NCBI GenBank assembly: GCA_036172245.1
Contig: JAYWIR010000053.1
Coordinates: 62,001-126,000, forward strand
Reading direction: 5' to 3'
DNA from: Raillietiella orientalis
Lineage: Eukaryota
Length of the DNA: 64,000 nt
Numbering within the stretch: position 1 is the stretch's first letter; each line of letters begins with the position of its first letter. Made by a program: the position numbers and the translations under genes. This document shows positions 3,001 to 51,162 of this stretch, piece after piece. The notes beneath the pieces were generated by a model. That model saw only the letters and a list, made by a program, of their open reading frames with translations. It was not told the DNA's origin and made no database searches.

Positions 3001-3016
3001 ACGCGATTCCCCGCAT
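1..3016 (-). pseudogene. A0 ORF2 (APE endonuclease + RT), disrupted
   Basis: LLQEIH, NVYAP, AGDFN, LDH, SDH; GIRQGDSLSPLLF and YADD in ORF 162..1511; broken by stops and frameshift. Confidence 0.92.
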
Positions 3017-7236: not shown

Positions 7237-7326
7237 TTCTGCCCAGGAACAACCGCGCTGAAAAACCCACAAACACCAGCAAAAACAGACGGTTTTCCGG
7301 AGCACCGAAAAAACACGTCCACTCAC

Positions 7327-21200: not shown

Positions 21201-21839
21201 AACTTTTCCCCGTTTGCCGACCCGCGAGCACAGGTCGACATCCAGGAAGAAGTGGTCGATGCTGCGGTATACTCCCTCCGCGTCTGCCAACAAGTTGCGC
21301 GTGCGCATGGCCGCGCACAACTCGTTGGCCGTGCGTTCTTGTGCTTCGGGCTCACCTGACAGCAAACGGAGATTGAAGTCTCCAGCTATCAGGTGTGCCT
21401 TTCCCGCATTCGTGTCGGCCAGCCAATCGCGCTTCAGGGTTTCCAGCAGCATGGTACGGTCGCTGTATCCCCCTTTTCCGCTCGGGGAGTACACGTTCGT
21501 GACGATCAATTCGATCGAGTCGGACCAGCTGAGAATCAGCTGACCGATCCGACCGTCGTCATCAAAGCGTACGCCCTTCACGGCAGCGTCGATGGCCGGC
21601 TTGACAAAGAACGCGACCCCGCAGGTGTTGCGGGCGCCGCATCGCCAATACACTCGACCCCCCGCGAGCGCCTCGATCTCCTGGACGTCTGCCGAGGTGA
21701 TCACGTGGATCTCCTGCAGCAGCGTTAAATCGAAGTCACGCAGGGTGTCGGCCGTATCTCGTTTGTTGCCGTCGTCGCGCAGCCCGTTGACGTTCCAACT
21801 AGCCACGCGGATTCGACGGCGACAGGCGAGCCCAGGTGT
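18247..21839 (-). pseudogene. B2 ORF2 (EN-RT-CCHC)
   Basis: WNVNGL, AGDFN, IDH, SDH; SIRQGDSLSPLLF, YADD; CARCGERDSLPHLL. Confidence 0.92.
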
Positions 21840-26290: not shown

Positions 26291-26506
26291 TCCCTTCCCT
26301 CACCCTATCCGATTTTTGTTTATTTTTTTTTGTTTTCTTTTTGTTTCGTTCCCCCTCCCCTCTGCTGCCGAGGTCGACCGCACCGGTCTGCGCACCGGTA
26401 GCCCGGCAAGCAATATCTTTCCAGGGCGTGGCTGGACTACTGGTCTAGTCACACATTATATAGGTTTATTCCTGAGAATAAACGCCCAGGCGCAACCGGG
26501 TTTCAA

Positions 26507-29272
26507 GCGAGATTGCGGAGGGTGACGTCTTAGGAATTCGCGAAGGTGTTCCTCCTCACCTGAGAGTGGCGTCCGGTCCCCAGGCAGACGCCACGGCCTG
26601 GATTGGGGGCCCTTGTCGCGCGGGCACACCTCGAATATCAACCGGAAATGGTCTGACAGCTCTGACGCAACTCTTCCCGTTTGCCGACCCGTGAACACAG
26701 GTCGACGTCCACGAAGACGTGGTCGATGCTGCTGACCATTTCCGAAAGATCCCCTAACAAGTTGCGCGTGCGCATGGCGGCGCACAACCCGTTAGCCGTC
26801 CGATCCTGTGCGTGTGGCTCACCTCATAGCAGGCGGAGATTAAAGTCTCCCGCTATCAAGTGAGCCACGCGCACGTTCGCTCGCATCAGCCAGTCGCGCT
26901 TCAGGGTTTCCAGGAACGCCTTACGTTCGTGGTACCTGGTAGGACCGCTCGGAGCGTACACATTTGTTACGACGAGGTCGATCGTGTCGGACCACCTGAG
27001 AATAAGCTGGCCGACACGACCGGCTTCGTCAAAGCGCACGCCCTTCACGGCTGCGTCGACTGCCGGCTTCATAAAAAACGCGACGCCGCAGGTGTATCGG
27101 GTGCCGCATTGCCACATCAACCGTCCCCCTGCGATCCTTTCGATCTCCTGGGCATTCTCCGCGGTGATCACGTGGATCTCCTGCAGGAGTACCAGGTCGA
27201 AGTCACGCAGGGTGGCGGCCGTGTCCCGTCTGTTGCCGTCGTCGCGCAGCCCGTTCACGTTCCAGCAGGCCACGCGTAATCGATGGCGACAGGCGAGCCC
27301 AGGCGTTACTCCTGGGAAAGTGGTAATGGGGCTCCCGCTACCTGGTCGGGCGGGACGGATGGAGGAACGGGATCACCGCGCACCGGTTCTCCCTCCTCCA
27401 TTAGGGCCGATTCTTCGGCGGACCGCAACGGTTGAAGGGGGCGGGTATCACGCACCTGCTCCCCCTCTTCCATGGGAGCCGATTCGTCGGTTGCGTTGGA
27501 CGGCAGGGGCGAGCGCTTGTCAGCTGTCTGCTGCCCCTCCTCCATGGCTATCTCCTGAACAGGTTCCACCGTTGGGAGGGTGCGGCAATCACTCACCTTA
27601 TCCCCCTCCTTCATGGGGGTCTCCAGTTGCTCGGTAGCGGAGGGTGGGAAAATCCCTCCCTCCGTTCCCACGCTGCCGGCTTCCCCCTCGGATGCCGGTG
27701 CGTCCCCCTCCTTTGTCGGGATGCGCCTCTTGGGATTCTAGGACTTCCGTCCAGTCTTCTTCGGAGGCGCCTTCGCGGAGAAGGACGCTCTTCCGGCATC
27801 CAGTTCGTGGTCACCTGTTCGAGGTGCCTTGCTCGCGGCCGGCCTTCGCAAGGCCTTTCGCGCGCCGTTCTCACGCTCCGCGAGTTCGGCCGCTTTGGAG
27901 CGAGCTCCCCCGGTGGAGGTCGCTCCCAAGCGGCGAGCGCGTCGCACGGCTCCCCCTCTGTTTGCACAGAGGGTTCGCCTTCCTCGATCGCGGCTTCGGC
28001 GTCAACCAGGCGGGAGATATCTCCCCCGGTGGAGGTCTCGGGGATCTCTACTCGCTCCAAAGCGACCGAACATTCGCGGAGCAAAGCGCGGCGTTGCCTT
28101 CTATTTAGAGAAGTTGTCGCGGGTTCCGCTGTCGGTTCTTCGGTTTTTCGAATTTTTTTACTTTTCGGCTTCGCTGTCCGCCAGTCCTCGTTGTCACCAG
28201 CGTCGTCGGGAGTTTTCTCGACCGCCGTTTGCTGGGAGCTTTGGGACTCTGGCTTTTTGCTTGGCCTTTACTTTGCTTCAGTGGTCTTGCTTGTTTTCTC
28301 CGAGCGTTTACCCTTACCTTTTTTCAAGGCACAGGGCGCTAGAGGTTCCCGCTTTTAGCACACTTTTCGGAGGTTGCCCTTCTCCCCGCAGTGCATACAC
28401 TGGATGTGAGGGCACCGTTTTTTCAGGTGCCCTGTTGCATCAAAGTGCCCACAGTACTTGCGCTTGCCCACGTACCAGACGTCGACGACCTCGTTGCCGA
28501 CGTCGAGTTTGTGGTACAGCCCATTGTTGTCGTGGACCGTCACACGCGCTGCAACCATGCCACTGAACAGTCTTCCGTATGTTTGGAAGACGTTGGGCTT
28601 AGTCCAGAGCGCGTGAACCGTACCATGTTTTTGCAACTCTTACTGCACGCCAGCTTTGGTCATGCGAAGAGTTACAACCGTAAGGTGGGCAACAATGGAG
28701 CGATCCTCCGTTACAGGGAAGACCTTTCGGCCTTCCAGAGTGATGGGAGTGTTCAGCAGGCTTTCAGCCAGACTTGCGTTTTTGCAAGTCAGCTCCATCC
28801 GCTGGCCCCCACTCATCACGGAGAGACCTTCGAGGTCTTCCTCTTTGACATCCTTCCGCTGTAACTCTCTTTCAAAGTTACGAGCGGTGTTCCCCACAAA
28901 CAGGTTTCCTACCTTGTAAATCAAGGACGGGTTGTATCCTTGTTCCAGGTAGGCGCGCTATTCTGCTAAGGCAGCTGGAGATGGAGCTGCAGCCACGGAG
29001 CTCCAGGTCTTCGTGGATGGAGCAAGTGGAACCAAGGACGCGGTTGCCCCCATTTTCAAGGGGGCGGTTGTGGCCTTTTCCAAGGCGGCGGTTGTCCCCT
29101 TTTTCAAGAGGACGGTTGCGGCCTTTTGCACGAGGACGGTTGCTCCCTTTTTCAAGGGGGCGGTTGCTCTCTCCTCCGTGGGGGCGGTTGCCCTCACCTC
29201 AATAGGTTGGGGAGAGGAGCAATCCTCTACCCCGCCGACTTCCATCGCGCTGTCCTCAGGCATTTGTGCCAT
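26507..29272 (-). pseudogene. D ORF1 (27306-29272) and EN (26507-27306)
   Basis: GYNPSLIYKVG; CMHCGEKGNLRKVC; (A/L/P)MEEG repeats; WNVNGL, NVYAP, AGDFN. Confidence 0.87.
29040..29200. repeat. 24-bp tandem repeat (~6.5 units) in the D ORF1 N-terminus
   Basis: Units begin (G/A)CGGTTG every 24 bp; encodes ATAPLKKG-like octapeptides. Confidence 0.9.
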
Positions 29273-31708: not shown

Positions 31709-33250
31709 TCGGAAGATTGACGTCGGTTAGAGAGGACGTGTTTCCTTGGTGCTCCTAGTGGCGGGAACCGTCCCTAGGTGTAGGCTCCGTGTGTGGTGGT
31801 GATCGCAGAGGCAGCAATGCCTGACAAGACCACCAGTGCGTGTAAGGGGGCTGTTACAACGTCGCTTTCTGAGGAAATGGAGTCCCAGGTGGAAGCGGCA
31901 ACGTCGCCTCTAGGAAAGTTGGAGTGCCAGGGGGAGGCGGCAACGTCGCTCTCAGTGGCGAAGGAACTGGGGGCGTTCGCCCCCAGAAAAGCGATCCCCA
32001 CTGCAACGCGGTTGTGGAGCGCCGTCGTGTCGGCGCCATCGCCTGCAGCCGCTGCGGAATTATCTGCCTATGTAGAAGAGGGGTATAACCCATCACTATT
32101 CTACAAGGTAGGAAATTTGTATTCTTCTGAGAGTGCGCGCACTTTTTCGGAGGGGATGCGCGCTCTCGATGTTAATGTGGAGTAGCTCTGCGCTATGATT
32201 TTCCGTAGCGGGCGGCAGTACGTAGATTTGATCTGCAAAGACGCAGATCAGGCCAAACGTCTGCTCAAAACCCCCGTGGTGATGGGAACACGCAGACTCC
32301 TGCCCATTACGGCGGACCATAGTATGGTGGTGCACCTTTTAGGAGTTACCGCCCGGATGCGGAAAGAACAGTTACGCGCCGCGTTGGGAAAAGAAGGCAC
32401 GGTCCATGCAGTATGGACCAAGCCTAGTACTTTCGAGGACTATACCAGAGTTTAGTGCGGCCTCACGGCTGCCCGTGTAACCGTTTGGGAAAGCTCTACC
32501 CTTCCCCACAAACTGGTGGTCGGCGCAGAAATCGTCGACCTCTGGTACGTGGGGAGGCCCAAATACTGTGGCTTCTGCAACACGTCATACACCTAAAAAT
32601 GAGGTACCCCAAGGTACAGTGCCAGATATGCGGGACAATGAGCCACACAATAGGAAGTGTGTCCACAATCCGCTGTGCACGTGGTTTTCTCGAGGAACCT
32701 AAAAAATCTCGCGCGAGTGCTGCAGAGAAGCCCGGCGGCGAAGGCTGCCGCTCAAGCTGTGCCACCCACACCCGTGGTCCAGGCCGCAGCCGACTCCCCG
32801 ACAACGAATGTTGGAAAGATCGAAAAAAGCGGTCAGGTGTTGGAATGGCAAGAAGGGATAGCGAAAAAAAAAAAGTCGAAGAAAGAACGAGGAATTGAAA
32901 AAAAGCTCGCGTACCAAAACAAAAGAAAGCAGGATAGTGAGAATTTAAAAGAATGCAGCGTCGTCGTGGAACGCGTTCCCGCCGAACGCCGCAAGGTAGA
33001 AATCGCTGCTACCGACGAGCAACCCACTGTTGAAAATGTCAACAGCGTGATGAGCGAACCGGCGGAAGCGTCCGTCATTAAGACCGTGATCGATGACGCC
33101 GCCTTCGAGCGTGCGGCGCAGGAGCTGGCTGCATCGTTGCAGCCAGACCCCTTCACGGCCAGTTGGAGGACGTGTTTTAACTTCACTCCTCAAGAGTAGT
33201 AGGAAAGCGCTTTCTTGTGTGTGGTGTTTTGTGTACATCATCGGTGTCCA

Positions 33251-35001
33251 ATGGCCAAGACGCCAGAGGAAACCGCGATGGAGGTGGGAGTGGGGGAGGC
33301 TAGTTCGCCCCCACAGCCTACTGCAGCAGAAGCAGCCGCCCCGGAATCATCCACGGCCACGCCGAGGACATGGAGCGCTAGGTGGCCGCGCCCAGCGCAG
33401 AAGCCATGGCGGAGATGGCCGCATACAAGGCCTCCGGGTACAAGCCATCGCTTGTCTACCAGGTAGGCAACTTGTTCGACGGCCGGACAGCGCGCGCCTT
33501 CAGCAAAGCGTTGAAGGACGCGAATGTTACCGAGAAGGATCTGGACGGCCTCTCCGTCATCAGCGGCGGGCAGCGGGTCGATGTGGTCTGCAAAGATGTC
33601 ACCTTGGCTCACCGCCTAATCCATGCGCCGCTGAACGTAGACGGCCGCAAGATCCTGCCAGTATCTATGGACCGCTCCGTGGTGGTCCACATGACTGGCA
33701 TCACCAGCCGCATGACGCGGTCAGCGGTTGGTGAGGAATTAAGAAAGTACGGTGAGGTGCACGCACTGTGGCCGAAACCCTCCATTTTCGACGGCTTCGA
33801 TAGCCTTTTTGGTGGGCAGGCTGCAGCGCGGGTCACCGTAAGGGAGAATTGTGGGCTTCCCCACAAACTACAGGTGGCGCAAGAAAACGTCGACCTGTTG
33901 TATGAAGGGAAGCCACGGTATTGCGGGCATTCTGATACCGTGGGACACCTACGTAAAAGGTGTCCCAATATACAATGCCATTTGTGCGGGGAGCGGGGCC
34001 ACGTTCGGCGCGTGTGTCCCAAACGCCCCACTCCGGTTCCCCCTTCCGCGAAAAAAGCGCAGGGGAAACGTGCTTCCAAGGTCTCTAGACCTAAAGTAGA
34101 AAAGGGCCAGCACGAGCTGCCAACACTTCAACCTCCGGCGCGTAAGGCGGAGGATAAACCTTCTGAAACGGTGGAAGGCGAAGAGGGATGGCAGCTTGTA
34201 GAGGCCAGAAAGCCGAGCAAACTCCCACCCGCGGAGAGCAAAGAGCTCAAGACGGCCGGTAAGCCGAAAAAACTCGGTCCGCGCTCGAAAACTCTGCGCG
34301 AGTGCACGGTGGCACTGGAACGAATCGTCGTTCCCGAGATTGCCACCCGGAGCTTCGAACCTCCCCTTGCCGTTTCGGCTGCGCCCGAGGCTCGCGACGG
34401 CGAACCCTCTGTTTACACAGAGGGAGAGCCGCGCGACATAGCGGCGGTCGAAGCCGCAGACGCCGCGTTCGCGCAGGCGGCGGAGGAGCTCGCGGTCACG
34501 CTGGCCGAGCGTGAGAATTCCTCGCGCAAGGCCGTGCGAAGGCCGGCTCCGGCGAAGAAGGCCCCCACAGGTGAGATAGACCTGGGCGCCAGAAGCACAT
34601 CCTCCTCCTCGGAGGCACGCCCCAGGAAGTCGTGACGCAAGTCCAAGAAGCCCAGGAGGCGCCTCCCCTCCACCAGCGAGGAGGAGAAGACGGAAGCCGT
34701 CGCCAGCGTGCGAAATTCGGAGGAGGAATTCCCACGCTCGGAAGCCGTCGATCCGGCCACCCCCATGGAGGAAGGTGAACAGGGGGGTGAAGTCCCCTCT
34801 GCAGGCGCCGACCCTGAACAGCCCGCCCCCATGGAGGAGGGCGAACAGGTAGGCGCGACTCCACCTGCGGGTGATCCGGCGGACGCGCCGGCACCGATGG
34901 AGGAGGGGGACCAGGTGCCTTTAGCACATGACCCCCATCCTCCAGCTAGCGTTTCGCCCCACCAGGTGGCGGACGCCGCACTGCCATCCTCCCAGGGGTA
35001 A
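33251..35001 (+). pseudogene. H ORF1
   Basis: GYKPSLVYQVG; CHLCGERGHVRRVC; PMEEG x3; internal stops. Confidence 0.87.
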
Positions 35002-35468
35002 CACCTGCGCTCGCCAGTCGCCGTCGGATTCGCGCGGCCTGTTGGAATTTCAACGGGCTGCGCGACGACCGTAACAGGCGAGATACAGCCGACACCCTGC
35101 GGGAGTTCGACCTGGCCCTGCTGCAGGAGATCCACGTGATCACAGCGGCAGACGTCCAGGAGATCGAGACGATTGCGGGGTGTCGGCTGTACTGGCAATT
35201 CGGCATCAGCAACACCTGCGGGGTCGCGTTCTTGGTGAAGCCGGCCATCGACGCTGCCGTGAAGGGAGTGCGCTTCGATGACGACGGTCGGGTCTTTCAG
35301 CTGACTCTCGGCTTGTCCGACTCGATCGATCTGATCGTCACGAATGTGTACGCCCCAACCGGTCAAAAGGGATACAGCAACCGTACCAGGCTGCTTGAAT
35401 CCCTGAAGCGCGACTGGCTGGCGAACACGAGCGTGCGGAAGGCTCAGCTGATAGCGGGAGATTTCAAA

Positions 35469-35492
35469 CGAGTGCGGACGTGTTTTTCTTCG
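35469..35492 (+). promoter_or_regulatory. Conserved 5'-terminal motif GGACGTGTTT (putative internal promoter/initiator), representative copy
   Basis: Within ~15 bp of the 5' junction of 11 elements from five families; function is inferred. Confidence 0.55.
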
Positions 35493-35547
35493 CTCTCGTC
35501 TCCGTGCTTTCATCCGCTTCACCTTGGCGTCGTACATTTTGACGACG

Positions 35548-37470
35548 ATGTCGACCCAACTTGAAGCTACTAAAGTTGGAGGAACAGCATCCGGATCTGC
35601 AATTGCGGAACCGACGGCCGCCTCCACTTCATCTTTCTCGCCAATGGAGAGGAGTTTTGCTTACGTTGCTACCACAGCAGCCGTCAAAGGGAAACCACTC
35701 GACGAGTCGGAGTTGCGAACATACGTAGCCCAAGGCTATAGACCTGCTCTCCGACATAAGGTGAGTGGCTTTCTTTCTGCGCGCGACGGAAATCAGTTCA
35801 ACGATGAACTGACCCGTGTTGGCGTGCGGGAGGAGGACCTTCTCGCCATTATGCCCGTAAAAGACATGGGCTATTTCAAGGTGCGTTGCAAAGACGCTGC
35901 ACTTGTGCAACGCTTGCTGCGCACCCCGTTGTCGATCCGTGGCCAGAAGGTCTTCCCGGCCGCCATGGACGACTCATTTGTGGCGGAGATGTTCGACAGC
36001 GAGTCGGAAATCTCCGATATTGATATTCGGAACGCGTTGGCGAAATTCGCCACGGTCCATGCGCTGTGGAGGATGCGTAGCAACCTCAAGGACTACCCGT
36101 CCATACATAGCGGAGTCGCTGGAGTCCGGCTTACAATGCCGGACCGCCGTCTGCTACCCAACAAACTACAGGTGAAAGACACGGTCGTTTACCTGTGGTT
36201 CGTGGGCAAAGTAAGAACGTGCGAGCAATGCGGGAAGGAGGGGCATTGTTTAGATAAATGCCCCTCTGGAAAATGCCGTTATTGGAAACTATCCGGGCAG
36301 CAATTGAAAAATTAACCGGATCTTTTGCGAAAAAAGACAGCCGCAAAGCTGCATCTTAAAAAACAAAGCGCGGATAAAAAGAAAAAATCTGCGAAAAACC
36401 TGGAGACCCCACGGCAAAAATTCCTAAAAATAGCGAGGTGGAATGTCGCCCCAAAGCAGCAGGAAACCTCGCACGCGAAGCCATGCGCGCCCCCTCTCAC
36501 GGCAGGAAAGCCGCAAAAAAAAGGCTGCGGGGAATCCGGGGCAATAATAAGTCCCCCTAGGCGCAATAGCTGTCCTTCCCAAGCACGCCCGGCTCCGTCG
36601 GAGTTCGAGCAACCGGCGGGGACGTCAAAGGACAACGGCGGTAAGGACACTTCCAGTACCGTCAGATCCATTCCTTCACCTCCTGCAGTGGCTGAGAAGC
36701 CCAAATCGGGTAAGAAGAATTGTGCCCTGTCGACTTCGAAAGTCGGCAAAAAAAAATACGCGTCGCGATCCAACACCGCGAAAGCGGAGAAAAATCTCAC
36801 GCCGTCGCAATCGGAGAGCAAGCTCTCGACTGGCGCCGATGCCATGCCAACGAAAAGATTAAAAACCCTTCCGAAGGCAGCGTCCATGACGAGCGTGTCG
36901 AAGCCATCCAAAGTGCTCCCGTCCAAATACGCGGATGGATTCAAAGATGGCAATGGAGCACAATCTCCATTTTCGGCGCCACGCGAAGTGAGGAACCGTA
37001 AGGAAGTAAAAAAGGCTTCAGCAAAGGTCCCTCGTGCAACTGCGCGTGAGCACGCTGAAAACGCACGCGCCGGGAAAGCAGCCGGCACCAAAAGCGATGC
37101 TCTGGTGACGGAAAACGAAAACAGGACAGCTGTCAATCCAGCAGAACCTGTCACTGCTTCGCGAAAGGCCGAAACCCGATCGAGCATGCGCCGTTCGGAC
37201 TCCGAAATGGATGCCGTTCCGATCACCGAGACGAGCACAACTCGTTCAAAAGCGTGTGCGCGCCGATCAAAAGTAGGCAGCCAGGCAACGCTCGCCGCGA
37301 AGCTACGCAAAGTCTCCACGAAACCCGACGGGGTTGAGCCTGGCGTGGAGGCATTTCACGCATGCAGCACGACAGAAGACGGTGGTGACCGTCCCCTCCA
37401 AACAGTCGTGCTGCTCGCCGTCTGCTCGCCGGATAAAGCGAGCAAAAAGCTGCCACCTTCCCAGCAGTAA
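35548..37470 (+). pseudogene. A1 ORF1
   Basis: MSTQLEAT...CEQCGKEGHCLDKC; single in-frame stop at 36313-36315; TAATG at 37468-37472. Confidence 0.9.
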
Positions 37471-40400
37471 TGCGGGGAATCGCGTCTTCTCGTCGTCTGT
37501 CGGTAACGTGTTGGAACGAGAACGGACTGCAGAACGACGAGAAGAGGCGATTAGTAGCCAACGCACTGCGCCCCTCCGACCTCGCGCTGCTGCAGGAGAT
37601 TCACGTAATCTCCGACGAGCAGGCAGCCGAAATCGAGGAGCGCGCAGGCGGAACGCTACATTGGTGGTGCGGCGGCGAACACACGTGCGGCGTCGCGTTC
37701 CTCGTAAGAGGAAAAATGGCGGAAGCGGTGCGTAGTGTTCGTTTCGATGACCACGGACAGATAGGCCAGCTTGTCATCAAGTGGTCCGAGTCCATCGATC
37801 TCGTCGTAACGAACGTCTACGCGCCGAGTGGCTCTCGCTACCTCGAAGAAAGAGTAGCTTTCTTTGGTGAGGTGCAGAACCACTGGCTCAACAACTCCGG
37901 CTTCAAAGTGGCGCCCCTCGTCGCTGGGGACTTCAACGTCCGCCTGCTCTCCGACGATTGGAGCCACCGAGGGAGCGCGCGCTGCCCATCGAGATGTGCG
38001 CGTCCGTGCACGCCGCCAACTTGATGGTCAGCGAACCTGGAATGGAAAGATCGCTCGATCACGTTTTCCTCGATGAAGACCTGCATTCGCGTGTGGGCAG
38101 GAGAGGAAGATTGTTGACTGAGCTTTCTGACCACCACAGGTTGGAGTTTGAGATCCTTCCGCCAGGCAGGGGGCCTCCGTTGCAAAGCTGGAGGATGCAG
38201 GCGGATTAGCTTAGCCAACTGGAGGCTGCGTAGCATCTACGTGGATACCTCCGAGGCTTTGCCATTCAAGAACTTGCGGACTGGGACGATCTCAAAATAT
38301 CTGTCCGCGAGTTCTGTTGCCAATTCCCCTTTTACCGGCTTCCACGCGGTTTCGGAGAAAGCGTGGCCAACAGTAGAGACTTACTGCAGGCCCGCACGTT
38401 TTCGAGACGCGCCGATGTCGGGCGTATCGCAGAGAACAAGGCGAGGGCCGAGCGCCACGTCTGGCAGTCCGGAGCAGCATGCCTGTTGGACGACAAGGGC
38501 CAGGAATGTTCGGCCCCAGCCGAATTACGCCGCATTGTGAGACGCTACTACTCCTCGCTCTACGTGGAATTCCCGACGGAGGATATTCTTTCTGAGATAC
38601 TCCTGTCTCAGGATGCTCGTGTTGTCGGCGAGGAGGAACGCGAACGTCTCGACGAGCCCTTCACGGCGGATGAATTTTCGTCCGCCATCGCTGGGCTGAA
38701 GAGGCGCAAGGCGTCACGCGAGGATGGGCTCCCTGCAGAGTTTTATCAGTGCTTTGCAGTGGAGCTCATTCCCTTGATGCTGAAACTCGCGACGCTGATG
38801 ACTGAATCCGGGAATGTCCCTGATTCCTTCCGCTCAGCGAAGGTGCGTCTCCTGCCGAAAGGTGGAGACTTGCGCCAACTTGACAACTGGCGTCCGATCA
38901 CCTTGGTGAACTTGGACGTCAAGTTGTTTTTTAAGCTGTGGGTAGCGCGGTTAAGAAGAATCGCGGAATCTGTGGTGAGCCCGGAACAAACCTACGCGGT
39001 TCCGGGACGAGCCATGGAGGCGAACATCCTTTTCGCGCGTACATGGATGCAGCTGCAGGAAGTTGTGGCGCAGCAAAGCCAGGCTGCTGCGAAAGTCACT
39101 GCCGCAGGGAAAAAGAACAGGCGCCGACGGCAGGAGGGAACGCCAGGTGCCTTGGCGGTTGCGGTCGATCTCCACAAGGCGTTCGACTGCGTAAACCAGA
39201 AGCTGCTTTTGGAGCTTATGGAACGCCTTGGGTTCCCGGCGTAACTCCTGCTGTATTTGCGCGCGTGCTGGCGCCACGCGCTAACCTGCATTACTTTCAG
39301 CGGCTGCCGCGTGTATGGTATTCCCGTTCGTAGTGGCATCCGACAGGGCGACAGCTTAAGCCCGTAGCTCTTCAGCATCTTCTTTGAGTTGGAGCTAAGA
39401 GCATACAGGCTGACGCTGACTCACTTGCCAAGCTCCTGCCCAGGAACGCCTGTCGTGGCCGCCTACGCTGATGACCTGCTTCTTCTGCTCCCCATGTCCA
39501 CCCCGGCGTCCAGTGTCGAGGATTTCTTCGACCTGATTCGTCGGGGAGCGGGCGTGAGCGTGAACAGAGAGAAGAGCGGAGTCGTTCCTGTGGGTACGTC
39601 GAGGGAGGGGCAGTCCGACTGGATCCACCTGGGGATCCTCACGGGCGGGTACTTTAAGTACATTGGCGTTCCGTTGGGCGCTTTCGGCGCAGCCGAAGCT
39701 TGGGCGTACTGTTTTCAGAAAGCAGAGTTGGCCATCAGCCCGTTCTTTAACGGCAAGTTTACCTTGCAGGAACGGGCGACTATTTGGAACACCTTTGTGG
39801 CCCCCCTCCTCCGTCCCCTGTTTTTAGTTTTGGACCCCCCCTATGCGGCAAAACAACGGGCTAAGCGCCTGCTCAGGAACGCTCTCTGGGGTCCGGCGAG
39901 ATCCAGGATCCGCCTTAAAGACTTGTCAGCTCCGCGTTGGGATGCTGGTTTGGGTATCCTGACAATGGAGCGAATCGGACTGCAGGTGCAGTTCCGACTG
40001 CTTGCACTGTGTGAGCAGCTATGGACATCCCCCCTGTGTGTGCCAGCTCGCATTCTCCTGCGGAAATGCGCCGGCAGCGGAGGATTTCTCTCGCTTTTGC
40101 CGGGCACTCAATACAGCATGCGGGGTTTCGGGTTTCCATTGCTGCTGTTGACCGCACTTCTGAAAGCACACTCTTGGATCTCCTGCCGCCCAATGAACTT
40201 TGACGCTTGGCGGCAGGTATCTGTTGAATCCAGGGCGGCGTTCCAAGGAATACACCCTGAAGATCTTCTTCCCCTGCGCCAATTTTTTCCACGATCCTTG
40301 GAAGAATTACTGCATGACGAGGTGAAGTTTTCTACCCTGGCTGCAACGCCTGTTGCCGCAGCGCTGTCTGCCCTCAGGGCAAGAAACGACAGTTACCAAC

Positions 40401-41062
40401 CGGCGAGGTGGGAGGTTTCCTGCACGATAGCGGGAAGAACCAAACTCCTTGGCACCTGGAAGACAAGTGAGTTGGCGGACGCCGCCACTCCTCGTGTTAC
40501 TGCAAAGGGACTACTCCGGTGGGCAGAAGAACTTTCTGTTACCCCCGAAGAACTTGTAGTCCCTCCACAGTGTATTGACAGTTCGCTGCTCCCCCTAGCT
40601 TGGAAACAAGCCGTGCTGCTTTTCGTTCACTGGGGTTTTCAGTGCAACGAGCGTTGGCATCGTGACTCCGGGGGACTTCCGTCTGCGAACTGCGTTCGGT
40701 GCGTTTCGACGGAGTCGATTCCGCACCTACTTCTGGACTGCGGTGTCCTACAAGGACTGTGGCGTAGGCTGGCAACAGCACTAATGCATCCCGTGGACAC
40801 CGCAAGAGACTTGCTGCGACAATTCTTCACGCCGAGCGGGCTGTCACTAAGCGCAAGGATGGCAACCATTGGTTGCATACGCGCGATAGTTTCCGTCCGC
40901 CAGGCGTTGGTAATCAACGGACAGCACCAAGAGGTAATCAGCAAAGCAACCTTCTACATAAGAGCATATGCTAAATGGCCTCATTTGACAGAGGAGACAA
41001 AGAGGAATCTCGCCGCAATACTCCGCCGGTTTACACACCCTCATCAGCGGCCAACCCGGTGA
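37470..41062 (+). pseudogene. A1 ORF2 (EN-RT-CCHC, ~1200 codons), disrupted
   Basis: AGDFN, LDH, SDH; NWRPIT; YADD; CVRCVSTESIPHLLLDC. Confidence 0.93.
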
Positions 41063-41345
41063 TCATTGCACTACCCTCCATAAACTAAATTTGTATTTTC
41101 TTTTTACATCCGCGTCCCCATAGGCTCCGGAACATTTTAGGTGCTCATCGTATAAATCCCCGTGAGTACGGAGCCTAACCAAAAACCCGTTACCCTTCCC
41201 TCCAGTTTTTGATTTTTGTTTGTTTCCCCTCATTCCTCCCGCGCTGCGAGCGGTTTGTTTACCAGGCCTGAGTGCCGGTGATTTTAATATGTTCTCTGTC
41301 GTTCTGTTGGTTGGTGACATTGTCCCTGACCAGTTTATTATTATT

Positions 41346-41375
41346 AATAAACGCCCCGGCGTGACCGGGTGATAA
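41346..41375 (+). terminator. Conserved 3'-terminal AATAAA + CCCGG-N5-CCGGG hairpin, representative copy
   Basis: Related ~30-nt end on 10 elements; function is inferred. Confidence 0.6.
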
Positions 41376-41462
41376 ATTTCAATCGAGTGCGGACGTGTTT
41401 TTCTTCGCTCTCGTCTCCGTGCTTTCATCCGCTTCATCTTGGCGTCGTACATTTTGACGACG

Positions 41463-43374
41463 ATGTCGACCCAACTTGAAGCTACTCAAGTTGGAGGAAC
41501 AGCATCCGGATCTGCAATCGCGGTACCTACGGCCGCCTTCACTTCGTCTTTGTCGCCAATGGAGAGGAGTTTTGCTGACGTTGCTGCCACAGCAGCCGTC
41601 AAAGGGAAACCACTCGACGAGTCGGAGTTGCGGGCATCCGTAGCTTAAGGCTATAGACCTGCTCTCCGATATAAGGTGAGTGGTTTTCTTTCTGCGCGCG
41701 ACGGGAATCAGTTCAACGATGAACTGACCCGTGTTGGCGTGCGGGAGGAGGACCATCTCGCCATTATGATCGTAAAAGACATGGGCTATTTCAAGGTGCG
41801 TTGCAAAGACGCTGCACTTGTTCAACGCTTGCTGCGCACCCCGTTGTCGATCCGTGGCCAGAAGGTCTTCCCGGCCGCCATGGACTACTCATTTGTGGCG
41901 GAGATTGTCGACATCGAGTCGGAAATCTCCGATATTGATATTCGGAACGCGTTGGCGGAATTCGCCACGGTCCATGCGCTGTGGAGTGTGCGTAGCAACC
42001 TCAAGGACTTCCCGTCCATACACAGCGGAGTCGCTGGAGTCCGGCTTACAATGCCGGACCGCCGTCTGCTGCCCACGAAACTACAGGTGAAAGACACGTT
42101 CGTTTACCTGTGGTTCGTGGGCAAAGTAAGAACGTGCGAGCAATGCGGGAAGGAGGGGCATTGTTTGGATAAATGCCCCTCTGGAAAATGCCGTTATTGG
42201 AAACTATCCGGGCACCAATTGAAAAATTGCCCGGATCTTTTGCGAAAACAGGCAGCCGCGGAGCTCCATCTTAAAAAACAAAGCGCGGATAAAAAGAAAA
42301 AATCTCCGAAAAACCTGGAGACCCCACGGCAGAAATTCCGAAAAAACGCGAGGCGGAATTTCGCACGAAAGCAGCATGAAACCTCGCACGCGAAGCCCTG
42401 CCCGCCCCCTCTCGCGGCAGGGGAGCCGCAAAAGAAAGGGTGCGGGGAATCCGGGGCAATGGTAAGTCCCCCTAAGCGCAATAGCTGTCCTTCCCAAGCA
42501 CGCCCGGCTCTTTCAGAGTTCGAGCAACCGGAGGGGACGACAATGGACAACGGCGGTAAGGACACTTCCAGTACCGTCAGATCCATTCCTTCACCTCCTG
42601 CAGTGGCTGAGAAGCCCAAATCGGGTAAGAAGGGTTGTGCCGTGTCGACTTCGACAGTGGGCAAAAAAAAATCCGCGTCGCGATCCAACACCGCGAAAGC
42701 GGAGAAAAATCTCACGCCGTCGCAGTCGGAGAGCAAGCTCTCGTCTAACGCGGATGCCATGCCAACGAAGGGATTAAAAGCTCTTCCGAAGGCAGCGTCC
42801 ATGACGAGCGTGTGGAAGCCATCGAAAGTGCTCCCGTTTAAAGACGCGAATGGCTTCAAAGATGTCAATGGAGCACAATCTTTATTTACGGCGCCACGCG
42901 AAGTGAGGAACCGTAATGAAGTAAAGAAGACTTCAGCAAGGGTCCCTCGTGCAACTGCGCGTGAGCACGCTGAAAACTCGCGCGCCGGGAAAGCAGCCGT
43001 CAGCAAAAGCGATGCTCTGGTGACGGAAAACGAAAACAGGACAGCTGTCAATCCAGCAGAACCTGTCACTGCTTCGCGGAAGGCCGAAACCCGATCGAAT
43101 ATGCGCCGGTCGGACTCCGAAATGGATGCCGTTTTGATCACCGAGACGAGGACAACTCGTTCGAAAGCGTGTGCGCGCCGATCAAAAGTAGGCAGCCAGG
43201 CAACGCTAGCCGCGAAGCCACGCGAAGTCTCCACGAAACCCGGCGGAGTTAAGCCTGGCGTGGAGGCATTACGTGCATGCAGCACGACAGAGGACGGTGG
43301 CGACCGTCCCCTCCAGCCAGTCGTGCTGCTCGCCGTCTCCTCGCCGGATAAAGCTAGCAAAAAGCCGCTAGTAA
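41463..43374 (+). pseudogene. A2 ORF1
   Basis: Homologous to A1 ORF1; stop at 41646-41648; 11-bp deletion before TAATG. Confidence 0.88.
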
Positions 43375-46300
43375 TGCGGGGAATCGCGTCTTCTCCTCGT
43401 CTGTCCGTAATGTGTTATAACGTGAACGGACTACAGAACGACGAGAAGAGGCGATTAGTAGCCAACGCCCTGCGCCCCTTCGACCTCGCGCTCCTGCAGG
43501 AGATTCACGTAATCTCCGACGAGCAGGCAGCCGAAATCGAGGAGCGCACAGAGGGAACGCTACATTGACGGTCCGGCGGCGCACACACGTGCGGCGTCGC
43601 GTTCCTCGTAAGAGGAAAAATGGCGGAAGCGGTGCGTAGTGTTCGTTTCGATGACGACGGACGGATAGGCCAGCTTGTCATCAAGTGGTCCGAGTCCATC
43701 GATCTCTTTGTTACGAATGTCTACGCGCCGAGTGGCTCTCGCTACTTCGAAGAAAGAGTAGCTTTCTTTGGTGAGGTGCAGAGCGAGTGGCTCAACAACT
43801 CCGGCTTCCAAGTGGCGCACCTCGTCGCTGGGGACTTCAACGTCCGCCTGCTCTCCGACGATTGGAGCCGCCCGAAGCAGCGCGCGCTGCCCATTCAGAT
43901 GTGCGCGTCCGTGCACGCCGCCAACTTGATTGTCTGCGAAGCTGGAATGGAAACATCGCTCGATCACGTTTTTTTCGATGAAAAGCTGCATATGCGTGTG
44001 GGTAGGAGAGGAAGATTGTTGACTAGGCTTTCTGACCACTGCAGGTTGGGGTTTGAGATCCTTCCGCCAGGCAGGAAACCTCCGTTGCAAAACTGGAGGA
44101 TGCAGGCGGATTGGCTTAGCCACCCGGAGGCTGCGGAGCATCTACGTGGATACCTCCGATGCTTTGCCATTCAAGAACTTGCGGATTGGGACGATCTCAA
44201 CAGATCTGTCCGCGAGTTCTGCTGCCAATTTCCCTTGCATTGGCTTCCACGCAGTCTCGAAAAGGGCGTGGCAAACAGTAGAGACCTTCTGCAGGCCCGC
44301 ACGTTTTCGAGACGCGCGGATGTCGGGAGTCTCGCAGAGTACAAGGCGAGGGCCGAGGGCCAGGCATGGCAGTCCGGAGCAGCATGCCTGTTGGACGACA
44401 AGGGCCAGGAATGTTCGGCCCCAGCCGAAGTACGCCGCTTTGTGAGACGCAACTACTTCTCGCTCTACGCGGAATCCCCGACGGAGGATATTCTTTCTCA
44501 GATACTCCTGTCTCAGGATGCTGGTGTTCTCGGCGAGGAGGAACGCGAACGTCTCAACGAGATCTTCACGGCGGATGAATTTTCGTCCGCAATCGCTGGG
44601 CTGAAGAGACGAAAGGCGCCAGGCGAGGATGGGCTCCCTGCAGAGTTTTATCAGTGCTTTGCAGTGGACCTTATTCCCTTGATGCTGAAACTCTCGACGC
44701 TGATGAGTGAATCCGGGAATGTCCAGGATTCCTTTCGCTCAGCGAAGGTGCGTGTCCTGCCGAAAGGCGGAGACTTGCGTCAACTTAACAACTGGCGTCC
44801 GATCACCTTGGTGAACTCGGACGTCAAGTTGTTTTCCAAGCTGTGGGTAGCGCGGTTAGGAAGAATCGCGGAATCTGTGGTGAGCCCGGAACAAACCTCC
44901 GCGGTTCCGGGACGATCCATGGAGGCGAACATCCTTTTCGCGCGTACATGGATGCAGCTGCAGGAAGTTGTGGCGCAGCAAAGCCAGGCTGCTGCGAAAT
45001 TCACTGCCGCAGGCAAGAAGAACAGGCGCCGACGGCAGGAGGGAACGCCAGGTGCCTTGGCGGTCGCGGTCGATTTCCACAAGGCGTTCGACTGCGTAAA
45101 CCAGAAGCTGCTTTGGGAGCTTATGGAACGCCATGGGTTCCCGGCGCAACTCCTGCTGTATTTGCGCGCGTGCTGGCGCCACGCGCTAACTTGCATTACT
45201 TTCAGCGGCTGCCGCGTGTATGGTATTACCGTTCGTAGGGGCATCCGACAGGGCGACAGCTTAAGCCCGTTGCTCTTCAGCATCTTCTTTGAGTTGGTGC
45301 TAAGAGCATATAGGCTGACGCTGTCTCACTTGCCAAGCTCTTGCCCTGGAACGCTTGCCGTGGCCGCACACGCTGATGACCTGCTTCTTCGGCTCCCCAT
45401 GTCCACCCCGGCGTCCAGTGTCGAGGATTTCTTCGACCTGATTCGTCGGGGAGCGGGCGTGAGCGTGAACAGAGAGAAGAGCGGAGTCGTTCCTGTGGGT
45501 ACGTCGAGGGAGGGGCAGTCCGACTGGATCCGCATGGGGATCCCAACGGGCGGGTACTTTAAGTACCTTGGCGATCCGTTGGGCGCTTTCGGCGTAGCCG
45601 AAGCGTGGGCGGACTGTCTTCAGAAAGCAGAGTTGGCCATCAGCCCGTTCTTTAACGGCAAGTTTACCTTGCAGGAACGGGCGACTATTGGGAACATCTT
45701 TGTGGCCCTCCTCCTCCGTCCCCTGTTTTTTGTTTTGGACCCTACCTATGCGGCAAAACACCGGGCTAAACGCCTGCTCAGGAACGCTCTCTGGGGTTCG
45801 GCGAGATCCAGAATCCGCCTTAAAGATTTGTTAGCTCCGCGTCGGGATGCTGGTTTGGGTATCTTGACAATGGAGCGAATCGGACTGCAGGTGCAGTTCC
45901 GACTGCTGGCACTGTGTGCCCAGCTATGGACATCCCCTTTGTGTGTGCCAGCTTGCATTCTCCTGCGGAGATGCGCCGGCAGCAAAGGATTTCTCTCGCT
46001 TTTGCCGGGCACTCAATACAGGAAGCGGGGTTTCGGGTTTCCATTGCGGCAGTTGACCGCACTTCTGGAAGCACATTCGTGGATCTCCTGCCGCCCAATG
46101 AACTTTGAAGCTTGGCGGCAGGAGTCTGTTGAATCCTGAGCGGCGTTCCAAGGAATACGCCCTGAAGATCTTCGCCCCCTGCGCCACTTTTTTCCACGAT
46201 CCTTGGAAGAAGTACTGCAGGACGAGGTGAAGTTTTCTACCCTGGCTGCCACGCCTCTTGCCGCAGCGCTGTCTGCCCTCAGGGCAAGAAACGACAGTTA

Positions 46301-46965
46301 CCAACCGGCGAGGTGGGAGGTTTCCTGCACAATAGCGGGAAAAAACAAACCCCTTGGTGCCTGGAAGACGAGTGAGCTGGCGGACGCCTCCACTCCTCGT
46401 GTTACTGCAATGGGACTTCTCCGATGGGCAGAAGAACTTGCTTTCACCCCCGAAGAACTCGTAGTCCCTTCACAGTGTATTGAGAGTTCGCTGCTCTTCC
46501 TTGCCTGGAAACAAGCCGTGTTTCTTTTCGTTCACTGGGGTTTTCAGTGCAACGAGCGTTGGCATCGTGACACCGGGGGACTTGCGTCTGCGAACTGCGT
46601 TTAGTGCGGATCGACGGAGTCGATTCCGCACCTACTTCTGGACTGCGGTGTCCTACATGTACTGTAGCGTAGGCTAACAACAGCACTAATGCATCCCGTG
46701 GACACCGGAAGAGTCTTGCTGCGACGATTCTTCACGCCGAGCGGGCTGTCACTAAGCGCAAGGATGGCAACCATTGGTTACATACGCGCGATAGTTTCCG
46801 TCCGCCAGGCGTTGGTAATCAACGGACAGCACCAAGAGGTAATCAGCAAAGCATCCTTCTACATGGGAGCATTTGCTAGATGGCCTCATTTGACAGAGGA
46901 GACAAAAAGGAATCTCTGGAATACACCGCCGGTTTACACACGCTCAGCAGCGGCCAACCCGGTGA
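43374..46965 (+). pseudogene. A2 ORF2 (EN-RT-CCHC), disrupted
   Basis: 839-aa open segment 43620..46139; YADD mutated to HADD; stops at 43568, 46139 and 46604. Confidence 0.92.
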
Positions 46966-47278
46966 TCATTGCCCTACCCTCCATAAACTATTTTTGTATT
47001 TTCTTTTTACACCCGCGTCCCCATAGGCTCCGGAACATTTTAGGTGCTCTTCGTTTAAATACCCGTGAGTACGGAGCCTAACCAAAAACCCGTTACCCTT
47101 CCCTCTAGTTTTTGATTTTTGTTTGTTTCCCCTCATTCCTCCCACGTTGCGAGCGGTGTGTTTACCAGGCCTGCGTGCCGGTAATTTTTCTATGTTCTCG
47201 GTCGTTTTCTTGGTTGGGGACATTGTCTTTGACCAGTTTATTATTATTAATAAACACCCCGGCGTGACCGGGTGATAA

Positions 47279-50200
47279 ATTTCAATCTACGCCTTCAAAC
47301 AGGTGAGCCGGGAACACAAGTGAACGCGATGAACGAGTCGTGTACCGCCATGCGTGCGCGCAACTTGTTCGCGGGTGAGAGGGGAATGGTCCGCAGCATC
47401 GACCACGTCTTCCTCGATGCTGACCTGTGTTCACGGGTCGGCAAACGGGGGTGGGTTGCGTCAACGTTGTCGGACCATTCCCGGTTAATTTTCGAGATGC
47501 GGCCTCGCGACAAAGGACCGCGATCCAGGGACTGGCGTCTACCCGGAAACTCGACGAGACTCTCAGGTGCGAAGAAACACCTTCGCGAATACCTGAGAGG
47601 CGTCACGCTCCAGAATCTCCAGGGCTGTGACCTTTTTTAGGAATCGGTAAGGGAGTTCTGCGAGCAGTTCCCCCTGGACCGCCTGCCTTTCGGATTCGTC
47701 GAGGGTCCTCGCAACCATCGGGCCTATTAACAGGCCCGTTGGTACGAGCGAACCCCTAATGTCCGTCGCCTGTCCGAGTGCCGCGACGGGGCCGAACGCC
47801 AAGCCTAGCAATCCTGGTCGGCCAGCTTTCTGGAGGACCAGGGCCGGGAATGTTCCTCCCCGGCGTCGGTACGGCATCTTGTGCGGAGTTATTATTTCTC
47901 CTTTTACGCCCGGGCACCCCCGGAAAAGATGCCTAGCAACTCTTGCTTCCGGATGGTGCCGCGGCAATAGGGGAGGAGGAGTCGTTAAGCCTGGATGAGC
48001 CTCTTACCACCGGCGAAATTCTCGCCGGTATCAAAAGGCTCAAGAGGCGGAAAGCTCCAGGAAAAGACGGCTTGCCCGCGGAGTTCTCTCAGAGCTTCGC
48101 GGAAGAGCTGGCGCCCCTGCTGCTTCAGCTGACAAGGCTGATCCGAGACGAAGGCGATGTTCCCGCCTCGTTTCGGTCACCTAGAGTGAGGCTCCTTCCG
48201 AAAGGGGGAGATCTTAGGAATTTGAACAACTGTTGTCCGATCACGATTGTGAATACGGACGCCAAGTTGGTTGCCGGGCTATGGGCTTCGCGTCTGGGGC
48301 AGGTGGCAGAATCCATAATTAGCCCGGAGGAGACATATGCTGTTCCCGGGCGAACTATGGATGCCAACCTCTTCTTCGCGAGCACATGGATGCACGCGCA
48401 GAGGTGTCAATAGGAAGGGAAAGGAAAAATCGGCGACCCCACTTTGGGGCCGCCAGCAGGGCAGGGAATGGACCCTTAAGCGGGAATGGGGCCTTAGCGC
48501 TCGCAGTCGATCTCCATAAGGCGTTCCACTGTGTTGACCAGAAGCTTTTGTTTGAGCTCCCGGGTCGCATGGACTTCCCACCCTCCTTGATCAACTACCT
48601 GCGCTCTTGCTGGCGGAATGCAATTATCTCCATCTCTTTCAGTAGACAGAAGGTGTATGGCGTGCCGGTGAGGCGGGGCATCAGGCAGGGCGATAGCCTC
48701 AGCCCCCTGCTCTTCAGCACCTACTTTGAGTTGGTGCTGAGAGCCTACAGGGTGACTTTGGCTTCCTTGCCGAGCTCGTGTCCCGGCACGCCCGCCGTAG
48801 AAGCCTATGCCGACGACATTCTACTACTGTTACCTATGTCCACTCCGGCGAAGGCGGTCAGAGACTTCTTCGATCTGCTCAGCCGTGGGACCGGACTCCA
48901 GGTCAACAGGGCGAAGTCGTCGGTGGTGCCAGTAGGTGCCGCGTGGGCAGGGCAGCAGGACTGGGTCCGTCTGGGGATCCCCACGGCGAAATGCCTCAAG
49001 TACCTTGGTGTGCCGTAGGGTGACTACTCCTCTGCGGAAGCGTGGTCCAGCTGTCTTCAAAAAGTTGAGACGGCGATCGGCCCGTTCCTGGAAGGCAAGT
49101 TTCACTTGCCGGAACGGGCCGCGGTTTGGAACGCCTTCGCGGCCCCCATCCTCCGCCCCTTTCTTTTTGTTTGCCCCTCCCCAAAAGTAGTTAAAAAGAG
49201 GACGAAGGACCTCCTCCGCATCGCCCTTTGGGGCAAGGGGAGGCTCCGAGTCCCTCTGCAGGACTTGTGCGCTCCGCGTCGGGACGGCGGCCTTGGCGTC
49301 CTGACGCTGGAGCGCGTGGAGAAGCAGCTGCGGTGGCTAAACCCTCGCCATCGCAGCGAAAATGTGGAGCACCCCTTTGTGCGTTTCGGCCCGCCACCTC
49401 GCCAGGGGTGTGTCCTGATGCGAAGGACTCGCGTCGTTTCTTCTGTGCCCTGGCCGGAAGATCCGAAGATGCGGTCTTATGCTCGGACGCATAGCAATCT
49501 TGGCGAAGACGAACGGTTGGATGGTTTGTGGCCCCGTCAACTCCTCCGCCTGGTTAGAGGAGTCTGCTGGCACATGGGCTAAGCTGAACCGGAGGAGTGA
49601 AAACCACATGAACTGCCTGCGCATCGGCCCATACGCCAACCGCACCCTGCGGGAAATACTGGAATTTCCTCGAAGTCGCAGGTGGGCGTTGACAACCCCC
49701 CTTGCTACGGCGATGCCCTACCTCCTGAGAGCGCCTCAGGATCGCCGGAAGCCGAGGTGGCAAGTCACCTGCCAGATCGCAGGCAGGGAGAAGAAGTTAA
49801 GCGGCTGGACCACAGGAGAACTGGCGGACGCCACGACCCCGAGCGTCCAGCCGCGTGGATTAATGAGATGGGGCGAGCTGCTCGCCATCCCTACGGATGT
49901 GCTTAAGTGGCCCCCGGTACTAAAGGAATCCAGGATCCTGCCCTTTAAATGGCAAGAGTCGGCGTTGCTACAGCTGCACTGGGGTTTACCCCGCAACGCA
50001 CGCCGCTTCCACTGGACAAGGGGAACTGTGGATCCTGAGTGTGTCAGGTGCGGAGAGCGAGAATCGTTCTCCCACCTTATTGTGGACTGTGCTGCCATCT
50101 GACCCCTCTGGAAACGGTTCGGGGCGACCCTAGGGCTCCCTACGGGCAGCAACCCCAGAGAAGTTCTTCAGCCCCTCTTCGTGAAGGACGCACTGCAGCC

Positions 50201-50414
50201 AGCCGCAGCCATCCTTGCCTTGTGCTGTGTCCGTAGCATCGTGGCGGCATGGAGCGACGCCAATAACGAAGGAGTGGGTCCACACGCGAGGGATGTCATC
50301 CCATACGCCCAACGCTTCATGCGGAGAGCTACCGGATTGCCCCAACTGGCGAATATACGGACGGACCTCGAGGGCTTCCTTCAACGGATGTGCCCTCCTC
50401 ACAGCGCTCAGTGA
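47279..50414 (+). pseudogene. H ORF2 resumed (EN C-terminal half, RT, CCHC)
   Basis: FNLRL, IDH, SDH; GIRQGDSLSPLLF, YADD; CVRCGERESFSHLIVDC. Confidence 0.9.
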
Positions 50415-51162
50415 TCCCTTCCCTGCCCTCCAACTTCTTTTTGTCTGTTTATTTTTTTATTTTTCTTTTTGTTTTATCCCCATCCCCCTTCGCTGCTGAG
50501 GAACGCTACGCTGGGCTGCGTCCCGGCAGGTCCAGTGCATATGGCCGTGAGCAAGGCCTTGTACCGCGGATGTAGAGTTTTTTAAAAATAAATGCCCTGG
50601 GCGTACCCGGGTGTAAACCTCCAAGGCTGGCAAGAAGGCCGTAAGGCGTCCGGCCTCCCCTCAGGAGTCCTTCACTTCCCACCCCGAGGTGGAGGCCGGA
50701 AGCGCAGCCTCCGTTTCCACGGCACCGCGCAAGAAGGCTAAACGTAAGTCCACAAAGACAAGGAAGCTCGTCTCCCCCGTCGAAGGGGAAGAGATGGCTT
50801 CCGCAAGCGAGGGTTCCATGAGCGTGGGAAACTCTCGGGATCCGTCGCCCGAGAGACTCCCACGCGCGGACACGGAGGGGATGGAGGGGGTGGAGGCCGA
50901 ACAGGTGCCTCAGGTGCCTGAGAAGGCCGAAACCCCCATGGTCATCCCGCCCGCCTCGCAAGAGGAGGGCTCCCCAAACCTTAATCTTCCCAGCAGTAAT
51001 GCCGGGAATCTCCTCCCGCCGTCGTCTGCGCATCGCCGTTTGGAACGTGAACGGCATGACAGACGCCGGCAGGAGACGAGACATGGCCGCCCTTCTGGAG
51101 TCCTACGACCTTGCGCTGCTGTAGGAGATCCACGTGATCTCTGCAGAACAAGCGCAAGAGAT

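Follow-up and report, generated by a model that had tools for sequence, protein, structure and literature searches.

An L1-like retrotransposon probably homes to the DFN codons of related endonuclease genes in a nest of LINEs from Raillietiella orientalis

The stretch of DNA analysed here, 64 kb of contig JAYWIR010000053.1 from Raillietiella orientalis (the window), has a G+C content of 58% and consists nearly entirely of nested retrotransposons that lack long terminal repeats (non-LTR retrotransposons), as assessed by self-comparison and by a tblastn map made with the proteins of one of them, element A. A is an APE-type (L1-like) non-LTR retrotransposon, present as three copies (A1, A2 and A3; Table 1) that are 92-94% identical to each other in the self-comparison, A2 and A3 differing by 7%. 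It is a single-open reading frame (ORF) element of about 5.9 kb that starts with CGAGTGCGGACGTGTTTTTC, has an ATG at element base 80 and, in A1 and A2, one long frame from that base. The ORF codes for two CCHC-like knuckles, an APE endonuclease and a reverse transcriptase, and the endonuclease, N-terminal to the reverse transcriptase as in other APE-type long interspersed nuclear elements (LINEs), carries a GDFN motif that reads VAGDFNV. The reverse transcriptase domain PF00078 (RVT_1) was found on A3 ORF2 (E=7.3e-19), and PF03372 (Exo_endo_phos) in the endonuclease region of A1 (E=6.9e-10) and in B2, a LINE of another family (E=1.2e-14). The top solved relatives of the A endonuclease are structures of the human L1 endonuclease (2v0s and 7n8s in the PDB). 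None of the three copies in the window is intact: A2 carries frame breaks, and A3 has two private stops, TGG>TGA at 43566-43568 and CAA>TAA at about 41640, some 60 codons into the ORF. A reading of the A3 stop between 'ORF1' and 'ORF2' as read-through or as an unusual code was dropped, the stop being the private TGG>TGA change.

A has no terminal repeats and no poly(A), ends in ...AATAAACGCCCCGGCGTGACCGGGTGATAA and is flanked by a duplication of 8 bp, ATTTCAAT; the corresponding duplications are of 14 bp for element C1 (GCGAGATTGCGGAG) and 11 bp for family B (CCCCAAATCCC), all as expected of APE-type LINEs. A 3' block, AATAAAC-GCCCCGGGCGTACCCGGGTG-NNAA, also without poly(A), is common to all the families in the window, and the 3' terminus of each reads ...GGGTG-NN-AA (GATAA in A, GACAA or GTAAA in B, GAGAA in F). 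A shared motif, GAG.G.GGACGTGTTTTTC, marks the 5' ends. A conserved fold of the 3' end was predicted with seven pairs, none of them with a compensatory change, and a hairpin is possible there; Rfam gave no match, and no known 5' ribozyme was found.

The hosts of A are two other LINEs, H1 and H2. At the 5' junction of A1, H1 reads ...AGC GAT TTC AAT (GATTTCAAT) immediately before CGAGTGCGG, and at that of A2, H2 reads ...GGA GAT TTC AAA (GATTTCAAA) before the same CGAGTGCGG. The junction of A2 with A3 consists of ...GGGTGATAA, then ATTTCAAT, then CGAGTGCGG, and that of A3 with its host of ...GGGTGATAA, ATTTCAAT and CTACGCC, with which H2 resumes at 47287. The two halves of H2 join at residues 73/72 (A-ORF2 coordinates in the tblastn map), and removal of A therefore restores one endonuclease gene. 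Moreover, the downstream copy of ATTTCAAT keeps ...AAT, so the pre-insertion site of H2 was GAT TTC AAT. That both hosts hit by A encode DFN in this way had been proposed in a first-pass annotation of the window; the proposal holds for H1 and for H2 before the insertion, and not for the upstream copy now present in H2, which ends in A instead of T. A inserts in sense orientation directly after the Asn codon, with an 8-bp duplication of ATTTCAAT, at g/ATTTCAAT/c. The insertion of A1 in H1 and of A2/A3 in H2 at the same nucleotide, both in sense, is the behavior of a target-specific LINE, as seen at two sites only. Three ATTTCAAT 8-mers are present in the window, where 0.67 are expected from composition, and all three adjoin an A terminus.

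Upstream of the site H1 and H2 are 66% identical, against 92-94% among the A inserts, and the two host hits are therefore independent. The same comparison bears on the idea that the repeated junctions result from segmental duplication or mis-assembly of a single composite. Although the window does hold duplicated composite segments, copies of one composite would not be expected to combine such divergent host flanks with such similar inserts; A2 and A3 differ by 7%, hence there is no collapsed or expanded assembly copy, and H1 and H2 lie in different surroundings. We regard this origin of the junctions as extremely improbable.

Another possibility is that ATTTCAAT was brought by A itself, for example in a transcript beginning or ending in donor flank, in which case the host spelling would be a consequence of the insertion. 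The sense orientation of A inside host ORFs makes read-through transcripts conceivable, and sequence alone cannot separate a duplication from terminal identity. However, H1 and H2 diverge right upstream of GATTTCAA, which leaves no more than 9 bases that A could have supplied, and the upstream copy is host DNA under either cutting model. In addition, the sister families have the same ...GGGTG-NN-AA end, followed by differing duplications of 11, 13, 14 and 18 bp, which is how target-site duplications behave. Because all the families end in this way, ATTTCAAT is a duplication and not element sequence, and we consider its supply by A very unlikely.

We then compared the spelling of the DFN codons at occupied and empty sites. 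In each of the three A copies the element's own DFN reads GAC TTC AAC (GACTTCAAC), in frame as V-A-G-D-F-N-V, as the first-pass annotation had reported. The spellings that it gave for the copies not hit by A (B2, D, B3, E, C1 and C') were also found exactly as listed, and all six sites are empty. Matches to GAYTTYAAY number 8 in the window, against 2.79 expected, a count reached in 1 of 100 shuffles; the eighth match, GATTTTAAT at 41280, falls in the 3' untranslated region of A2 and does not represent an endonuclease site. The T wobble bases of both the Asp and the Asn codon lie within the 8-mer, and copies with GAC... or ...AAC, including those of A itself, are therefore not exact targets. 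The motif of A, ACTTCAAC, differs from the target at two of eight positions, both of them wobble bases.

Table 1. Positions in the window of element A, its target sites, and other LINEs and repeats of the nest
Feature	Positions	Strand	Sequence	Remarks
A1	1..5015	-	CGAGTGCGGACGTG	5' end (sequence shown) at 5002-5015; 3' end beyond window
A2	35469..41375	+	...CCGGGTGATAA	Full length, 5907 nt; 3' end shown
A3	41384..47278	+		Full length, 5895 nt
A1 own DFN	2550..2558	-	GACTTCAAC	
A2 own G-D-F-N codons	37926..37938	+	GGG GAC TTC AAC G	Site flagged in the first-pass annotation; GACTTCAAC at 37929-37937
A3 own DFN	43833..43841	+	GACTTCAAC	
H1 DFN	5016..5024	-	GATTTCAAT	Occupied; adjoins A1 5' end (upstream duplication copy)
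H2 DFN	35460..35468	+	GATTTCAAA	Occupied by A2 and A3; adjoins A2 5' end (upstream duplication copy, last base changed)
ATTTCAAT between A2 and A3	41376..41383	+	ATTTCAAT	Lone copy; signature of double insertion at one target
Downstream ATTTCAAT copy	47279..47286	+	ATTTCAAT	Borders H2 3' half
B2 DFN	21372..21380	-	GACTTCAAT	Empty; 7/8 match to target, differs at Asp wobble base only
D DFN	26839..26847	-	GACTTTAAT	Empty; upstream 10 nt identical to H2
B3 DFN	55298..55306	+	GACTTTAAT	Empty
E	9422..9430	+	GACTTCAAA	Empty; reads DFK
C1	15024..15032	+	GAGTTCAAC	Empty; reads EFN
C'	59060..59068	-	TATTTCAAC	Empty; reads YFN; 7/8 match to target
H1 5' part up to DFN	5016..7327	-		Separate lineage, 64-70% identical to all others; 5' end approximate
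H0 and H1 5' regions with ORF starts, in series	7804-8298 (H0), 6581-7075 (H1)	-		
H2 5' half	33168..35468	+		B-family LINE; 84% identical to B2/B3 (endonuclease region)
H2 3' half	47287..50617	+	...CCCGGGTGTAAA	3' end shown
Family B 11-bp duplication	9835-9845, 15437-15447, 18021-18031, 23692-23702, 58645-58655		CCCCAAATCCC	For example B2, 18032-23691 (-)
C1 element	12835-26506		GCGAGATTGCGGAG	Perfect 14-bp duplication (shown) at 12821-12834 and 26507-26520; carries nested B2 and H3* inserts
Shared 3' block copies	41326-41375, 47229-47278, 9846-9895 (-), 18032-18081 (-), 50568-50617, 26457-26506, 51163-51212 (-), 31659-31708			
Different LINE family	61729-63999	-		Right window edge; ORF2 about 25-30% identical to others; endonuclease motif at or beyond window end

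Occupancy was found at both of the GATTTCAAT endonuclease sites and at none of the six other non-A sites (one-sided Fisher p=0.036). It tracks spelling and not host family: H1 and H2 belong to different lineages, and no insertion is present in B2 or B3, the nearest relatives of H2 (84%). The 10 bases upstream of the site are shared by D and H2, yet D carries GAC TTT and is empty. Sites that match the target at seven of eight positions are empty as well: B2, C', a site in H2 at 35047, and the TATTTCAAG of A itself (three times). From codon usage, GAT-TTC-AAT is expected in only about 6.5% of such motifs, and both hosts have that spelling. It is unlikely that two unrelated hosts share it by accident.

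Conversely, the wobble bases could be irrelevant, with A reading the GDFN region loosely or by a longer context, the empty sites being due to chance, timing or the rarity of A, and the shared GATTTCAAT a coincidence. The sample is indeed small, as the first-pass annotation had itself cautioned, with two occupied sites, and there are only three A copies in 64 kb; the sequence downstream of the site is also not the same in H2 as in the empty B-type copies. However, at a probability of about 0.065 for the spelling, its presence in two independent hosts of different lineages has a probability of about 0.004, and there is no unoccupied ATTTCAAT in the window. D, too, is empty despite the upstream bases that it shares with H2. 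Lastly, the empty B-type copies differ mutually by 11-23% in the self-comparison, versus 6-8% among the A copies, and although part of this divergence predates their insertion, they were probably already present during the activity of A. Taken with these observations, irrelevance of the wobble bases appears decidedly unlikely.

Several observations weigh against a role for the exact 8-mer, or limit how firmly it can be asserted. Within hosts of the B/H type the association is reduced to two of two versus none of three sites (p=0.10). H2 continues downstream as CTACGC, where the empty B-type sites have CTCCGY, and recognition by A may extend past the 8-mer. The independent occupied sites are only two, and, as the downstream flank of H1 falls outside the window, one 3' host junction was seen. 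The Logan contigs of a run, X1, matched the window in part (0.24 of words), with no RNA run listed as a match, and 321 of the 508 X1 contigs compared with 41200-56000 were less than 90% alike. Among them, a low-depth contig (depth 4.3, with 33 letters on its shorter side) links 41376 with 55020, which it reads on the opposite strand; the joint could be an A end outside GDFN. A second X1 contig, of 3755 nt and about 96% alike, has an alignment that begins exactly at 41376, after 21 unaligned letters, and fits a further A copy that follows a non-A flank and ATTTCAAT. Two other runs, X2 and X3, had matches at a single low-complexity patch only (50438-50488), where they gave unrelated contigs with a depth in the thousands, an artefact of the patch and no sign that the locus is present in them.

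On balance, we consider it likely that A is a target-specific LINE that inserts at g/ATTTCAAT/c, a sequence found in the genome mainly as the DFN codons in the endonuclease genes of related LINEs, and that its own non-target spelling is a retained one. By analogy with the R1/L1 model of target-primed reverse transcription, the A endonuclease would make a bottom-strand nick at the left border of ATTTCAAT, and the freed 3' end would prime reverse transcription at the A 3' terminus (...CCGGGTGATAA). The top strand would be cut 8 bp downstream, leaving ATTTCAAT duplicated on either side of the insert. The insertion splits the catalytic motif of the host, in sense orientation, and the duplication would regenerate the target, making possible a second insertion and with it the A2-A3 tandem. 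On the same model, the endonuclease domain, rather than RNA pairing, would read the 8-mer, and one mismatch would suffice to block insertion. The cuts are thus predicted to be 8 bp apart, and among the spellings GATTTCAAT, GACTTCAAT, GATTTCAAC, GACTTTAAT and GACTTCAAC, placed in the H2 context, one wobble change would abolish cutting.

The first-pass annotation had gone further and suggested that synonymous variants escape the endonuclease of A, possibly as the mark of an arms race. The first part stands insofar as the wobble bases are inside the target and occupancy follows spelling; there is no sign that the difference was selected. Selection would mean that A keeps GAC..AAC against self-cutting and that hosts moved from GAT..AAT to GAC.. 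to escape. Such a history would be consistent with the overlap of the target with an invariant catalytic motif, which leaves only silent changes to the hosts, with the perfect match of occupancy to spelling in the window, and with the departure of A from the target at exactly two wobble bases. For homing endonucleases that sit in protein-coding genes a parallel logic has been established, at least in the excerpted text of PMC3159444; that precedent, however, predicts a parasite tolerant of wobble changes, which A does not seem to be.

The codon statistics do not call for selection. In the ORF of A, GAC makes up 54% of Asp codons and AAC 75% of Asn codons, so that GAC together with AAC is expected by default with a probability of 0.41, and any spelling other than GAT-TTC-AAT with a probability of 0.94; the spelling of A thus does not depart from its codon usage. 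As the three A copies descend from one lineage, their shared spelling is one observation (n=1). Wobble variation at the DFN codons is not above expectation for copies that are 60-89% identical. The three E/C-type variants also look derived from GAC TTC AAC, each of them being one or two steps away. For the B family, the endonuclease comparison gave the tree (D,(H2,(B3,(B2,H3)))), on which parsimony makes GAC ancestral and the GAT of H2 a derived C>T change, a weak reconstruction in that only four tips carry the site (H3 lacks it). If the GAT of H2 is derived, the host lineage gained the target, rather than its relatives escaping, and the resistant alleles would not be the new ones; the escape model predicts the opposite. 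An arms race or a selected self-avoidance is thus not supported, and we hold it to be rather unlikely. An element with a short exact target must itself lack that target, or else it destroys its own kin. It is true that A lacks its own target, but that this is an adaptation is not demonstrated; judged from codon statistics, the simplest view of its non-target spelling is that A has kept the one common in its GC-rich group.

At least two further LINE families in the nest home to fixed sites inside other LINEs, which we judged more interesting than the avoidance of codons. In three copies of the E/C type, namely E, C1 and C', family B inserts occupy one and the same ORF2 position, near residue 212 (A coordinates), in antisense orientation and with the same 11-bp duplication. 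One of these insertions is a tandem of B2 and an internally deleted copy that share one duplication copy. The family B events are distinct: C1, with B2, lies inside D/B1, and D/B1 is itself a B-type insert in E. C1 splits this one B-type element into D (26521 to about 29370) and B1 (9846-12820). That C1 is bracketed by GCGAGATTGCGGAG, carries B2 and lies inside D/B1 proves a three-level nest. Two antisense junctions, the 3' one of F in K (51163-51171, minus strand) and the 5' one that an A-like element forms with C' (about 59383), lie within one stretch of about 13 nt at the N-terminus of the E/C-type endonuclease (LQEIHV region). The two inserts would belong to one family, which suggests a third target-specific family. 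Family F holds the closest relatives of A, and its endonuclease part is absent from the window. H2 is in turn an insert in K, with an approximately 18-bp duplication, and empty versions of this site are present in E and C1. The 5' end of H1 falls within the H0 ORF at about residue 259, and H1, which carries A1, is therefore itself nested in another element.

Two further junctions were seen. At 31700-31740, the 3' end of element G (...GTGTGAAAA) is followed about 21 nt later by the 5' motif of K, the two forming another head-to-tail pair. At 54190-54229, a 5'-truncated B3 joins F through a perfect palindrome, CTCTCCGAAGCCGCTTTTAAGCGGCTTCGGAGAG, a junction of the fold-back type and not a duplication.

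A wider picture can be drawn, of a closed community of LINEs homing into each other's frames, with conflict at the wobble positions of the one catalytically frozen target, hosts becoming susceptible or ceasing to be so through single wobble changes and the kin of A spared by their spelling. As a whole we find this picture rather improbable.

Searches for further copies and relatives brought little. The protein closest to A ORF2 in a large protein collection, P0001 from a metagenome contig of 2.9 kb, is 55% identical to it and reaches 67-69% identity with the reverse transcriptases of the B/C type in the window. A metagenome scan with the shared 5'-end pattern returned 50 loci, none of which was similar to the window by blastn or tblastn. 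A scan of genome contigs with the reverse transcriptase alignment found two loci, with 21-22% identity, in one metagenome-assembled genome, and the same scan of viral contigs found none. In the literature, our search found no LINE aimed at the codons for the catalytic motif in related LINEs, nor mutual targeting among several LINE families, an absence that is not proof.

The known targets of target-specific LINEs are ribosomal RNA (rRNA) and small nuclear RNA genes, microsatellites, telomeres, DNA transposons and LTR elements. Zepp copies of green algae, which are L1-type LINEs, are nested in one another. As in the window, Zepp and ZeppL elements are piled up in LINE-only regions, with ZeppL repeats at Chlamydomonas centromeres, whereas ZeppL is about 8.3 kb long and the excerpted part of its description gives no fixed codon-level target (10.1101/2025.03.28.645958); the likeness is one of arrangement. 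Transposons are among the known LINE targets (PMC4640811), and the Tx1 clade in particular has APE-type LINEs with fixed targets in transposons, such as Tx1 itself, which targets the DNA transposon Tx1D, and families of crocodilians that target Mariner, Harbinger and LTR elements (PMC4494074, in excerpt). Like A, these are APE-type elements with a fixed place inside another transposable element, where multicopy selfish DNA offers a safe target (PMC4494074, same excerpt). In contrast, the target of A is the coding sequence of another LINE, at the catalytic motif of its endonuclease, and the hosts are relatives of A, so that the likeness is one of target behavior.

R1, which inserts in insect 28S rDNA, resembles A by behavior, being APE-type and sequence-specific with a fixed target-site duplication. 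Its tandems, as excerpted in PMC5932611, are separated by one duplication copy through double insertion, as A2 and A3 are, whereas the duplications of tandem R1 in rDNA are of 33 nt and that of A is of 8 bp. The specificity of R1Bm is carried by the endonuclease domain, according to the part of PMC1919474 available. Unlike the rRNA target of R1, that of A belongs to a selfish element, in which it codes for a protein motif. Homing endonucleases share with A a target DNA with a fixed amino-acid meaning, in which the host varies only at silent positions; they reportedly tolerate wobble changes (both points from the excerpt of PMC3159444), while A appears to need the exact spelling. Their enzyme family and mobility mechanism are unrelated to those of A.

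If true, homing of a LINE to the codons for the catalytic motif in its relatives would add a target of a new kind, and it would explain how LINE-only, Russian-doll regions grow without damage to genes. The junctions let APE-type endonuclease specificities of 8-14 bp be read directly, which is useful for understanding, and perhaps re-aiming, these enzymes. Since each endonuclease copy is either occupied or empty and has one of eight spellings, a conflict at synonymous sites becomes testable genome-wide. Should the picture of a closed community of LINEs be true as well, it would amount to an arms race between selfish elements at silent sites.

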